A DNA stretch of 64,000 nt from a plasmid. Within the stretch, counting starts at the first letter, position 1; each line of letters opens with the position of its first letter. The DNA is taken from the sequence record NZ_CP011600.1. One strand, written 5' to 3'. Both the position numbers and the translations under genes were made by a program. This document shows positions 13,814 to 16,330 of the stretch, in pieces. The notes beneath the pieces are model-generated. The model was not told the DNA's origin. It searched no databases and worked only from the letters and a program-made list of their open reading frames with translations.

Positions 13814-13991
13814 TGCGCCGTGCCGACACGACAGCCCGGCGGTCAGCGGAAGAATGCAAGGGCGACACCGGAAGCCGCACGCGCCGTTGTGAGCGGGCTG
13901 AATGCGCCGCGAACAACGGGGAACGGGTGAGGATGGCGAGCGCCAGCGTCCCTTGCAGGCGCCGCAGCCGGGCTACAGTGAAGGCACGGCG
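13814..13991. repeat. 178-bp GC-rich hairpin repeat, copy 1 (terminal inverted repeat gcgccgtgcc...ggcacggcg)
   Basis: Near-identical to the copies at 15603 and 16154. Sits immediately 5' (on the minus strand) of klcA. Confidence 0.65.
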
Positions 13992-14187
13992 TTAGCCGTC
14001 ACCGCACGGAGGTCAGCATTATCAGTGGTCCGGTCGCAGCCCGCAGGGATACGGCCGGACATCAGGGAGGAGCAGCGCGACACCCTTTTTCCCGTAAGGC
14101 GTCGCCCGCCAGGGTGAAGCCGGGTAACAGCGGAGCCGGCGACAACCTTATGGGCTGCAAAAAGCCGGGGGAATCCCCCCGGCCTCA

Positions 14188-14604
14188 TCAGGCGGCCATC
14201 AGCGTTTTGATGGTGTCCACATCCTGCATGGCGCGTTTAATACTCACGGGTGTCGGATGCCCTTCTTCCCATGCAAGCCCTTCCTGGTGCACCAGTTCGG
14301 CTTCATGGCGGGCAATCAGGCGTTGCAGGACATCCACCGGGACCGGTACTGTCCGGGTTGCATCTTCCCGGATACGTGCCAGCAGGGTTCTCACCGTCTC
14401 ATGCGAAAATCCGTCTCGCTGGTAGTCCGCCATTGAAAGGCTTCCGGCCTGCAACATGAGTTGTTCTGTTTCCTGGTCTGACGGGTGCATACTGTTGCAG
14501 GCGGCCCGGATACTCTCTTGTGTCCAGATGAACAGCAGCAGGGGCTCTTTCGCTTTGAACATACGGACCAGTTCGTCACAGGCTTCTTTGCGGTTACGGT
14601 ACAT
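14188..14604 (-). CDS. DUF1380-family protein, paralogue of 12581..12991
   Basis: Start chosen at MYRNRKEA, which has RBS agaggga. Shares LLLFIWTQESIR with the LALIVWTKEDVQ of its paralogue. Confidence 0.5.
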   Translation of the reverse strand: MYRNRKEACDELVRMFKAKEPLLLFIWTQESIRAACNSMHPSDQETEQLMLQAGSLSMADYQRDGFSHETVRTLLARIREDATRTVPVPVDVLQRLIARHEAELVHQEGLAWEEGHPTPVSIKRAMQDVDTIKTLMAA

Positions 14605-14659
14605 CGTGATTTCCCTCTTTTTTGTCAGTTGACCGGGCATGTCATGCCCGGCAGTGGTG

Positions 14660-14881
14660 TTAGTCCTGAAAACTCTCGTCCAGCTCCAGCATCTCCCGGT
14701 AGGCCTCCAGAAAACGGGCATTGATCCGTCTCAGGGTCTGAGCGGCCATGCGTCCGGCCAGCGTGGCCGAATCATGCCGGTGCTCTGATTCCAGACGGTT
14801 CAGCATCATCCGGACGTCACACATGGCGTTGCTGAGCGCTGCGACGTCGGCGCGCAATGCTTCCAGTCCCGGGTAATTCAT
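14660..14881 (-). CDS. small hypothetical protein
   Basis: 73-aa ORF between the methylase and the DUF1380 gene. Its start overlaps the stop of the methylase gene. Confidence 0.3.
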   Translation of the reverse strand: MNYPGLEALRADVAALSNAMCDVRMMLNRLESEHRHDSATLAGRMAAQTLRRINARFLEAYREMLELDESFQD

Positions 14882-15570
14882 GCGGCCTCCGGCCAGTCAG
14901 GATGAAAGGCGCCATCGTTGGCCGCCGGCATCCGGCGCGCCCGTTCGACCTGCGCCAGACGGCGGACGCCGGCGGCGTGGTATTCCTCAAGCAGTTCGAT
15001 GCCGATATAACGACGGCTGGCTTCGGCGGCTGCCACGCAGGTCGATCCGGAACCCGCAAACGGGTCGAGGATGATCGCACCCGGGCGTGTGAGGGATTCG
15101 ATGAGCGGGCGAAGGCTCTGCACCGGTTTTTCCGTCGGGTGGTGGCGGTTGCCCGTGTATTTCCAGGGAATGACGTCAGGGATGGGGCAATCCGGTGTCT
15201 GCGGCCGCCCTTTGGCCAGCAGATAGGCACTTTCGTGGGTGTAGCCCACAAACGTGGATTTCGAGGCATACGTTTTGGCAAATACCACGTGCCCGACAAT
15301 CCGGAAGCCGGCCTGTTTCCAGGCGTTAATGAACAGATCGGCACGGTTCCACGCGTAGAAACTGACCATCAGGCTGTCCTGTTTCAGCACGCGGTACATC
15401 TGCTGGCAGGCAGGCTCCAGCCATTCCGGCGTGTTATCGCCGGCGAGCGTGCGGCCTGAACGGTCGCGGTAGCCGACGAGATACGGCGGATCGGTCAGAA
15501 TAAAATCGACGGCACGGGACGGAAAACGGGACATGACCTGCACACAGTCACCCAGGATAAAACGGGACAT
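14878..15570 (-). CDS. orphan beta-class N6A/N4C DNA methyltransferase (DPPY motif)
   Basis: Motif IV TDPPYLVGY lies N-terminal of motif I DPFAGSGST, the beta-class order. No adjacent restriction gene is visible. Confidence 0.8.
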   Translation of the reverse strand: MSRFILGDCVQVMSRFPSRAVDFILTDPPYLVGYRDRSGRTLAGDNTPEWLEPACQQMYRVLKQDSLMVSFYAWNRADLFINAWKQAGFRIVGHVVFAKTYASKSTFVGYTHESAYLLAKGRPQTPDCPIPDVIPWKYTGNRHHPTEKPVQSLRPLIESLTRPGAIILDPFAGSGSTCVAAAEASRRYIGIELLEEYHAAGVRRLAQVERARRMPAANDGAFHPDWPEAA

Positions 15571-15602
15571 AGCACTCTCCTCTCTCATATGCGGCACCCT
15601 CT

Positions 15603-15780
15603 TGCGCCGTGCCGACACAAAAGCCCGGCTTTAAGCGGCAGGCGAAAAGGGCGTCACCGCAAGCCGCACGCGCCGCTGTGAGCGGGCTGAATGCACCGTG
15701 AACAGCGGGGAACGGGTGAGGATGACGGCGTCAGCGCACCCTTAGAGACGACGCGGCCGGGCTAGCGTGAAGGCACGGCG
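15603..15780. repeat. 178-bp GC-rich hairpin repeat, copy 2
   Basis: Same unit as 13814..13991. Immediately 5' of the methyltransferase gene. Confidence 0.65.
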
Positions 15781-15882
15781 TGCAAACACACCGGCGCCCG
15801 TCACAACGGGGGACGGTTCTGTCGCGGAGCGCAGCGACCTCCTTTCGCAAAAGAGGCCGCCCGAAGGCGACCGGCAGGCTTA

Positions 15883-16116
15883 CTACTCCCGCATCCTTTC
15901 GATGGCCATCTCCAGTGTGTACCAGTTGAACCCCACCTCTGCATCATGCTGGTCGTCGGCGATTTCCATCGCCGCCTCAATGTCTTCATCTGTCAGCGAG
16001 GGATCGAGAGAAAGAAAATCCTCCGCCAGCCAGAACGTCCCCAGACAGAGGGCATCTTCCGGGTATCTCTGCAACCGCGCGATAAGGCCGGCAATGGTCA
16101 TTGGGGATCTGTGCAT
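15883..16116 (-). CDS. small hypothetical protein
   Basis: ORF trimmed to MHRSPMTIAGLIARL.... Lies between repeat copies 2 and 3. Confidence 0.35.
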   Translation of the reverse strand: MHRSPMTIAGLIARLQRYPEDALCLGTFWLAEDFLSLDPSLTDEDIEAAMEIADDQHDAEVGFNWYTLEMAIERMRE

Positions 16117-16153
16117 GTTTGTCTCCGGTATAGTGCGGCCAGACAGGATTGCC

Positions 16154-16330
16154 TGCGCCGTGCCGGCACACAAGCCCGGTGAAAAGCCGAAGTCGGAGGG
16201 GCGACACCGCAAGCCGCAGCGCAAAACCTTTACGGGCTGAATGCGCCGTAAAGGGTGCGAACGGGTGAGGATGGCGAGCGGCAGCGGTACCCGGATGACG
16301 ATGCGGCCGGGCTACCGTGAAGGCACGGTG
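16154..16330. repeat. 178-bp GC-rich hairpin repeat, copy 3
   Basis: Same unit as the other two. Immediately 5' of gene 15883..16116. Confidence 0.65.

Follow-up and report, generated by a model that had tools for sequence, protein, structure and literature searches.

The plasmid sequence NZ_CP011600.1 was analysed over a stretch of 64,000 nt (referred to here as the window), in which long GC-rich repeats occupy the gaps upstream of minus-strand genes for an anti-restriction protein and DNA methylases. An earlier note on this DNA had listed three such repeats, lying before klcA, an orphan methylase and a small open reading frame (ORF), and had proposed them as Frpo-type promoters that act on the transferred single strand. 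A repeat search gave the same coordinates for these three copies (Table 1), and a covariance model built from relatives of the window copies added a diverged fourth, which is the core of what had been described as hairpin-rich DNA at 17570-17800. The four units are probably single-strand DNA promoters, as proposed, but their sequence and layout place them in the class 2/3 (ssp2/ssp3) family.

Leading region and gene context

Between positions 7555 and 33410 the window is nearly identical to plasmid pENT-812c (CP026189.1; IncF-type, MOBF), except for a 1.2-kb insertion at 26513-27741. To the left of 7555 is an insertion with ISEsa1 and nickel resistance, like that found in pTMTA97341 and other Phytobacter plasmids. 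The genes of the leading region (psiB, psiA, a ParB-like gene, klcA, DUF1380 genes and orphan methylases) are all on the minus strand and read towards oriT. At the pENT-812c locus the F nic motif GCGTGGGGTGTG is on the + strand, with traM on one side and the gene for a lytic transglycosylase on the other, and its strand agrees with the hairpin sense of the repeats in all three of F, pENT-812c and pTMTA97341. A nic site was not found in the window at the place expected from pENT-812c, which is occupied by a transporter gene. Because the window departs from pENT-812c left of 7555, strand orientation was taken from the nic motifs of these three plasmids. Transfer of the F type brings the nicked strand into the recipient with its 5' end leading and, together with the orientation of nic, this makes the window + strand the transferred (T) strand and the template for the minus-strand genes.

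The left boundary has a feature of its own. The only Rfam family reaching its gathering score in the whole window is sok (7555-7727, minus strand), so that the repeat units match none, and colinearity with pENT-812c ends at 7555, the hok start codon. Beyond it are an ISEsa1 transposase and a nickel/cobalt resistance module, and in pTMTA97341 the hok ORF is about 13 kb away; the sok/hok leader appears to have been cut off from its toxin gene.

Table 1. Coordinates of the repeat units, predicted promoter elements and neighbouring features in the window
Feature	Position	Strand	Remarks
Copy 1	13814-13991	+	Long T-strand hairpin in the promoter position for klcA; covariance model 165.5 bits
Copy 2	15603-15780	+	Hairpin before methylase; covariance model 182.9 bits
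Copy 3	16154-16330	+	Hairpin before small ORF; covariance model 147.8 bits
Copy 4	17534-17703	+	Diverged member; covariance model 30.6 bits, E ~2e-6
Copy 1, -35-like TTGCAG	13953-13958	+	3' arm, in duplex segment
Copy 1, -10-like TACAGT	13974-13979	+	3' arm
Copy 1, predicted start	A13986	+	7 nt past the -10 hexamer; templated partner T13821
Copy 2, -35 position TTAGAG	15742-15747	+	
Copy 2, -10 TAGCGT	15763-15768	+	
Copy 2, predicted start	A15775	+	
Copy 3, -35 position CGGATG	16292-16297	+	
Copy 3, -10 TACCGT	16313-16318	+	
Copy 3, predicted start	A16325	+	
Copy 4, TTGCAG	17657-17662	+	15-nt spacer to GACAGT
Copy 4, GACAGT	17678-17683	+	
klcA/ardB-type anti-restriction gene	13345-13776	-	Pfam PF03230 Antirestrict, E = 1.3e-22; behind copy 1
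Orphan N6/N4 DNA methylase	14878-15570	-	Pfam PF01555 N6_N4_Mtase, E = 2.5e-36; behind copy 2
Small ORF	15883-16116 (77 aa) or 15883-16101 (72 aa)	-	Behind copy 3
Operon behind copy 4	16407-17500	-	90-aa ORF (17228-17500), then N-6 DNA methylase (16407-17228; PF02384, E = 3e-6)
Intrinsic terminator of preceding gene	14167-14179	-	Terminator scan; just beyond copy 1
Intrinsic terminator of small ORF	15855-15872	-	Terminator scan; just beyond copy 2
Intrinsic terminator after N-6 methylase	16378-16398	-	GCGGGC-CTG-GCCCGC + TTTTTT; just beyond copy 3
Separate long T-strand hairpin, different family	11907-12085	+	-51.6 kcal/mol, z = -4.9; before ORF 11577-11891

Copies 1-3 are all intergenic and, as the earlier note had it, each sits directly upstream (in the minus sense) of a gene. 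The distance from the base of the hairpin to the gene start is 37 nt for copy 1 (klcA), 32 nt for copy 2 (methylase) and 37 or 52 nt for copy 3, according to which start is taken for the small ORF; the ATG at 16116 has a GGAGA Shine-Dalgarno sequence, and a start at 16101 is the annotation in pENT-812c. The translated small ORF (15883-16116) gave no Pfam match. The terminator of the preceding gene adjoins copy 1, which therefore opens a new transcription unit. Terminators also adjoin copies 2 and 3 on the side away from the gene; the one beyond copy 3 was read from the sequence and is absent from the list produced by the terminator scan. Over 11300-18000, a stretch of 6.7 kb densely packed with genes, there are 15 terminator-like sites against 6.5 expected.

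Fold, conservation and distribution of the hairpin family

The unit is 178 nt long with 67-71% G+C and a GC-rich apex. Copies 1-3 are diverged paralogues, and to call them near-identical was an overstatement: aligned positions of the units alone are 85-87% identical (z = 19-25 against dinucleotide shuffles), and when flanks of 9-10 nt and gap columns are included in the MAFFT alignment, identity is 80% between copies 1 and 2, 69% between 1 and 3, and 68% between 2 and 3. Much of the divergence of copy 3 lies in an inner stem that is altered on both sides with pairing kept. A hidden Markov model (HMM) of the three copies detected no further copies in the window at E<1e-3; the E-values it returns for its own three copies are circular.

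Each of the three was said to be bounded by a perfect inverted repeat and to fold as a whole into one long imperfect hairpin. The first holds for copies 1 and 2, which have a perfect 9-bp terminal stem (CGCCGTGCC/GGCACGGCG), but not for copy 3, where the stem includes one G-T wobble. The second applies to all: folded as single-stranded DNA (ssDNA) with short flanks, the + strands of copies 1, 2 and 3 each give one long imperfect hairpin of -63.2, -57.4 and -54.7 kcal/mol (z = -4.6, -4.2 and -4.6), and none of 200 shuffled sequences folded as well. Without flanks the energies are -56.8 kcal/mol for copies 1 and 2 and -47.5 for copy 3, and the complement of copy 1 gives -51.8. Copy 4 folds at -50.9 kcal/mol (z = -5.0) and retains the AAGCCGCAGC and ACCGGGTG motifs. 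Scores from the covariance model are strongly strand-dependent, at 148-183 bits for the + strands of copies 1-3 and 23-29 bits for their minus strands.

Relatives are numerous. The assembled family holds 133 unique full-length members, in a short form of 160-199 nt and a long form of 220-250 nt. A pattern scan of one genome per species found 99 loci, of which 83 carry members confirmed by HMM, nearly all of these on plasmid-sized contigs of Enterobacterales; the remainder fit the roughly 15 chance matches estimated for the pattern. The structure was assessed on 71 short forms. The structure used was the fold of copy 2, itself a member of the alignment and hence somewhat favoured, and it was set against slid and shuffled controls: 83.9% of cells are paired, as against 32-38% with slid partners; compensatory changes occur in 33 of 61 pairs (371 cells, compared with 120 +/- 11 in shuffles); and the covariation score is 0.22 (0.09 in shuffles, 0.04-0.06 in slid controls). 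RNAalifold, run on the MAFFT alignment, recovered the basal stems only.

Of 132 unique members, 131 fold better as the T strand than as the complement, with a mean difference of -7.2 kcal/mol (Wilcoxon p = 2e-23, uncorrected for relatedness among the sequences), which argues against a function in the mRNA sense. This bears on the possibility that the hairpins act at the RNA level in transcripts reading through from duplex DNA, as terminators, processing sites, stabilisers or elements like the repetitive extragenic palindrome (REP). The location of the units between co-directional genes would suit such a role, as would the fold of the minus strand of copy 1 (-58.4 kcal/mol, z = -4.25). It is nonetheless highly improbable, because the mRNA-sense strand is almost always the poorer folder, many conserved pairs are G-T on the T strand and become C-A mismatches in the mRNA sense, separate intrinsic terminators already end each gene preceding copies 1-3, and no T-run follows the hairpin in that sense.

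The position of the hairpin relative to genes is as regular as its fold. In 141 of 148 copies an ORF start with a Shine-Dalgarno sequence lies 15-43 nt from the hairpin base, while the same count at the opposite end of the hairpin is 11 of 143. The downstream genes encode methylases (39), ArdA (28), KlcA (27) and DUF1281 proteins (11), plus a few unknowns. A search of other plasmids for the unit, suggested in the earlier note, was productive: by BLAST it is present in 4124 of 72,556 plasmid records; Klebsiella accounts for 3120 of these, and carbapenemase plasmids of the pKpQIL type are included. Among the 40 plasmid matches listed, none has an annotated feature under the match. The family is very common, yet unannotated in the records examined. 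In 5426 complete Escherichia coli genomes the unit occurs at 130 places, all on plasmids and none chromosomal.

These figures also speak to whether the unit is a generic REP or miniature inverted-repeat transposable element (MITE), a possibility left standing by the earlier note. A mobile or recombinogenic repeat of this kind, or a target for insertion sequences or integrases, with no role in expression, would account for the multiple copies per plasmid (1 to 6 per 8-kb locus), for the splitting of copy 2 at 15719/15720 by a 4.5-kb insert in Phytobacter pTMTA97341, and for a possible internally deleted remnant at 11369-11412. We regard it as the most remote of the explanations considered. Paralogues within a plasmid have diverged with compensatory changes, unlike recent transposition copies, the units invariably follow the nicked strand in orientation and sit a short way upstream of a start codon, and none were found in E. 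coli chromosomes. No target-site duplications were seen, although no systematic search for them was made.

The two sequences just mentioned deserve description. The insert in copy 2 of pTMTA97341 (positions 962-5462 of locus L109) carries an IS110-family transposase, a type II restriction endonuclease and a cytosine methyltransferase; the copy 2 hairpin may be an insertion target, and the methylase operon of pTMTA97341 would lose its promoter through this event. At 11369-11412 (+) there is a perfect 11-bp hairpin, GCCGTGACCGG-ATAGCCCT-CCGGTCACGGC, whose base-stem sequence is that of the family. Situated about 24 nt upstream of the ParB-like gene start at 11344, it scores 19.6 bits with the covariance model (E ~9e-4), and looks like a family member stripped of its whole interior.

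A few occurrences are unusual in other ways. Members were found in assemblies labelled Streptomyces morookaense and Leucobacter iarius and in metagenome-assembled genomes (MAGs) of Oscillibacter and Cereibacter sphaeroides, the last being identical to copy 1 of the window; these probably reflect contamination or mis-binning. One pair of members is present in a 5.17-Mb Pantoea contig, which may represent an integrated plasmid or a chimeric assembly. In pKpQIL (locus L002, 9300-9480), a second, partial element lies just beyond the full klcA hairpin and consists of the 3' arm only, GGATGGCGGCG...GGGCTAAAGTGAAGGCACGGC (HMM positions 127-187, E = 2e-7); it may be the remnant of a tandem copy.

Promoter-like layout on the folded strand

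The earlier note had suggested looking for -35 and -10 elements created by the hairpin, and a consistent arrangement of this kind was found. As the 5' arm continues into the gene, polymerase must travel from the loop to the base of the hairpin, and the 3' arm is therefore the non-template strand. On this arm lies the layout TTGnnn-15 nt-TAnnnT, with a spacer of exactly 15 nt in 70 of 71 short-form relatives. The pattern used to collect members fixed T(-12), A(-11) and T(-7), and for this reason a separate count was made on 34 unique copies outside the search pattern. All 34 have A(-11) and T(-7), 32 have T(-12) and 27 have TTG at the -35 position. The -35 TTG sits in a covarying duplex (helix 5). 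In copy 1, T(-12) is paired with A13829, while the following A(-11), C and A are mismatched against C, A and G of the 5' arm.

Pairability with the opposite arm was mapped across the 71 relatives. Position -12 can pair in 70, but -11 in only 3, -10 in 5 and -9 in 8; pairing resumes at -8 to -6 (about 50-54) and is complete (71/71) at -3, -1, +1 and +2. There is thus a conserved mismatch at -11 to -9, and the duplex ends at -12. In the open complex of a sigma-70 promoter the upstream fork likewise has duplex to -12 and an unpaired A(-11). The predicted start is the A of the invariant GGCACGG (A13986, A15775 and A16325), a column that is an A-T pair in all 71 relatives. From the geometry, the leader of copy 1 would run for about 45 nt to the klcA ATG at 13776. 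As a rule, such elements could be recognised by pairing at -12, mismatches at -11 to -9, a TTG at 15 nt and a stem that is invariant where transcription would start.

The duplex form of the same DNA looks quite different. Its gene-sense strand offers no A(-11) in the hexamer at -10 in 68 of the 71 relatives, and about 23 nt stand where the T strand has its 15-nt spacer, so that the promoter should exist only in the folded single strand. A standard scan for canonical duplex sigma-70 promoters on both strands of 11300-18000 returned none, against 2.8 expected by chance. Long palindromes can be operators, and leading-region or anti-restriction genes of some plasmids are controlled by repressors; the units might then be ordinary duplex promoter-operators in which the palindrome binds a plasmid-encoded repressor. 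There is little room for this explanation, given the result of the scan, the missing A(-11) and the altered spacing in the duplex, and, at 178 nt and with covarying stems, the imperfect palindrome far exceeds an operator in size. The REP/MITE, RNA terminator or stabiliser and duplex operator explanations were rejected on the combined grounds of strand bias, diverged covarying paralogues, fixed orientation, plasmid-only occurrence and the absence of a duplex -10.

If the units are single-strand promoters, the sequence of events may be pictured as follows. The nicked strand (the + strand of the window) would enter the recipient 5' end first, and each unit would fold on itself. With the 3' arm as non-template strand, TTGnnn would be held in duplex 15 nt from TAnnnT, with T(-12) paired and A(-11) and the next two bases in a mismatch bubble, so that the fold would mimic the upstream fork of a sigma-70 promoter that is already open. 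Host RNA polymerase would then bind and start within the invariant base stem, near the A of GGCACGG, reading the 5' arm as template and proceeding outwards through the base of the hairpin. A leader of about 45-60 nt from the predicted start would be followed by klcA, the methylase, the small ORF or the second methylase operon. Synthesis of the complementary strand would abolish the hairpin and, as the gene-sense strand of the resulting duplex lacks A(-11) and spans about 23 nt where the spacer measured 15 nt, expression would stop.

A different emphasis would make the hairpins mainly signals for complementary-strand synthesis, as priming sites or as roadblocks that delay duplex formation, with transcription secondary or absent. 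Nearly invariant and without an obvious role in a promoter, the apical loop CGGGCTGAATGC contains CTG, the trinucleotide at which DnaG primase starts. The fold of copies 1 and 2 (-56.8 kcal/mol) falls between those of F 8664-8824, taken as ssp3 (-46.1), and F ssp2 (-65.4). Frpo RNA can prime DNA synthesis and class 1 transcripts aid conversion in vivo, and F ssp2, a relative of the long form, stalls complementary-strand synthesis at the end of the stem until UvrD resolves it (bioRxiv 10.64898/2026.01.09.698686). The short form ssp3, however, has no roadblock activity according to the same study (bioRxiv 10.64898/2026.01.09.698686). As a sole function, a synthesis signal would leave unexplained both the 15-43 nt that separate the hairpin base from a start codon and the invariant A(-11) and T(-7), the TTG at 15 nt and the mismatches at -11 to -9. 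We consider this reading rather unlikely as an alternative, but it is compatible with promoter function, and a priming or delaying role as an added function is plausible.

Relation to published single-strand promoters

Wen et al. (2025; PMC12672017) describe six ssDNA promoters in the IncI1 plasmid pESBL, mapped in transconjugants by RNA-seq after donor depletion together with 5' rapid amplification of cDNA ends (5' RACE). These are grouped there into class 1 (Frpo/ssi), class 2 (before klcA and ardA) and class 3 (before the M.EcoGIX methylase), with classes 2 and 3 conserved in F as ssp2 and ssp3 and class 3 set apart from all other hairpins (PMC12672017). In pESBL (NC_018659.1), the three-copy HMM matches exactly three places, all on the transferred strand. 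The best, at 3273-3437 (E = 1e-7), is in the gap before a methylase-containing operon whose first gene is a DUF1281 gene, and the others lie before klcA (7105-7328) and ardA (14052-14275), with E-values of 1e-5 to 4e-5. In F (NC_002483.1) there are matches at 8658-8822 and at 12489-12713, the latter before the ardB/klcA gene, with both matches on the strand that is nicked. When the window copies were globally aligned with pESBL class 3, z was 6.9-8.9, and for copy 1 with pESBL class 2 (klcA) z was 8.0; the two pESBL classes aligned with each other at z = 7.7. In no case did any of 300 shuffles reach the score.

The short-form elements of pESBL (class 3) and F (ssp3) are close in build to the window copies. 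They measure 161-165 nt, compared with 178 nt here, and share the base stem GCCGTGCC/GGCACGGC, the motifs AAGCCGCAGC and CGGGTGAGGA, a TTGCAT-15 nt-TAACGT layout on the 3' arm, an equal distance to the start codon, a leader like CTCCTCTC-CAT-ATGCGGC, and the same kind of downstream genes. They differ in lacking the covarying apical stem, capped by the loop CGGGCTGAATGC, that the window copies possess. Another difference is that a short form precedes klcA in this plasmid, whereas in pESBL and F the long class 2 form does. Activity has been measured for the pESBL and F elements, while the window copies are known from their sequence.

The class 2 elements (pESBL klcA and ardA; F ssp2 before ardB/yfgB) have in common with the window copies the base stem, the paired -12, the bubble at -11 to -9, the 15-nt spacer and TTGCAT, but are of the long form (225-250 nt) with a larger, unrelated apical domain, and F ssp2 has the additional feature of being a replication roadblock. 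Intermediates of long form exist, for example the pKpQIL klcA element, which matches the three-copy HMM with E-values from 3e-28 to 1e-27 according to the database searched. Both classes carry the base stem, the AAGCCGCAGC and CGGGTGA motifs and one -35/-10 layout, and it is the apical part alone that differs. Sequence comparison thus indicates that classes 2 and 3 have one common promoter core, although Wen et al. (PMC12672017) describe the two classes of pESBL and F as unrelated.

Several points weigh against reading the window units as promoters of this family. Their activity and start sites rest on homology and geometry, and the HMM matches in pESBL and F are tied to the published classes and start sites by gene position. 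Duplex sigma-70 promoters have spacers of 16-19 nt, longer than the 15 nt found here, and the match at -35 is limited to TTG. Copy 3 has no TTG at all in this position and copy 4 has G for T at -12 (GACAGT), and for these reasons both are probably weaker, copy 3 probably being the weakest promoter of the set. The sampled family members are phylogenetically related, and some of them were gathered by the pattern in which T(-12), A(-11) and T(-7) were fixed. Lastly, a 13-kb insertion parts the units from oriT, placing them about 24-28 kb from nic, compared with 11-14 kb in pENT-812c; they would enter later than their counterparts in that plasmid. The architecture and context of the units do fit a single-strand promoter of the leading region.

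Elements of this kind were already known from 2024-2025, a published table of candidates includes homologues of this exact subfamily, and the result for this window mainly confirms work published in 2024-2026. What is added is the fourth copy, the common core of classes 2 and 3, the map of mismatches at -11 to -9, and the short form before klcA. Promoters of this type allow anti-restriction proteins and protective methylases to be made within minutes of entry, before the DNA becomes a duplex target, and such early expression is part of why resistance plasmids cross species so easily. More tentatively, classes 2 and 3 and the short form with the GGGCTGAATGC apex might be one old modular superfamily with a common chassis and swappable apices. 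The chassis would comprise the invariant base stem with the start site, duplex to -12, the bubble at -11 to -9, an asymmetric spacer of about 15/23 nt and the -35 duplex. The apex might set a second property, which may be the strength of the roadblock to complementary-strand synthesis, the entry of primase, or the binding of a host or plasmid protein. If so, a plasmid could time each of its anti-defence operons separately.

The table of candidates referred to above is Supplementary Table 2 of Samuel et al. (2024), where Frpo*1 and Frpo*3, from the insect-gut metagenome OFEI01000013.1, are low-certainty candidates with only distant resemblance to Frpo. Both are clear homologues of the window copies (E = 2e-24 and 2e-18, respectively) and belong to the same subfamily as the window copies, including the GGGCTGAATGC/GGACTGAATGT apex; in Samuel et al. 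(2024) they are listed without structural or comparative analysis.

A second family of hairpins in the window is also represented among those candidates. The hairpin at 11907-12085 has class-1-like flanks and the motif GCACTTCACCCTGG, with a GC-rich instead of an AT-rich apex, and among the candidates of Samuel et al. its region matches Frpo*4, 5 and 7. A repeat covering this region (window 11828-12343; also 6779-7351 and 8867-9052 of locus L001) is present in three copies in the leading region of pENT-812c, at 92-97% identity. The earlier note had pointed to a different, palindrome-dense block at 12060-12340; this does differ from the repeat family, but the real long hairpin is that at 11907-12085, and the string of short GC hairpins that remains (12095-12345) is marginal (z = -2.2).

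With classical class 1 elements (Frpo/ssi; F Frpo1/2 and ColIb-P9 ssi1-3; Masai and Arai 1997; Couturier et al. 2023), the likeness would be one of principle. There, too, a T-strand hairpin of the leading region rebuilds -35 and -10 elements and drives early, transient downstream expression, but the class 1 hairpins are about 330 nt long, with an AT-rich, UP-like apex, and serve operons of the ssb/psiB type. The criterion for Frpo used by Samuel et al. (2024) was a BLAST match to F Frpo1/2 or ColIb ssi1-3 at E < 1e-6; a blastn search (word size 7) of the whole window with F ssiD and ColIb Frpo1 gave no match at E < 1e-3. Of the earlier proposal, then, the single-strand promoter part is supported by homology to classes 2 and 3, the hairpin and its geometry, while membership of the Frpo/ssi family was rejected, as there is no sequence similarity and the units here are 178 nt and GC-rich.

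A more distant parallel is provided by coliphage N4, whose early promoters are DNA hairpins extruded from, or formed on, a single-stranded template with the help of SSB (single-strand binding protein). The N4 hairpins are of 5-7 bp and are used by the virion RNA polymerase of the phage, not by the host sigma-70 holoenzyme, and they show no mimicry of -35 and -10 elements.

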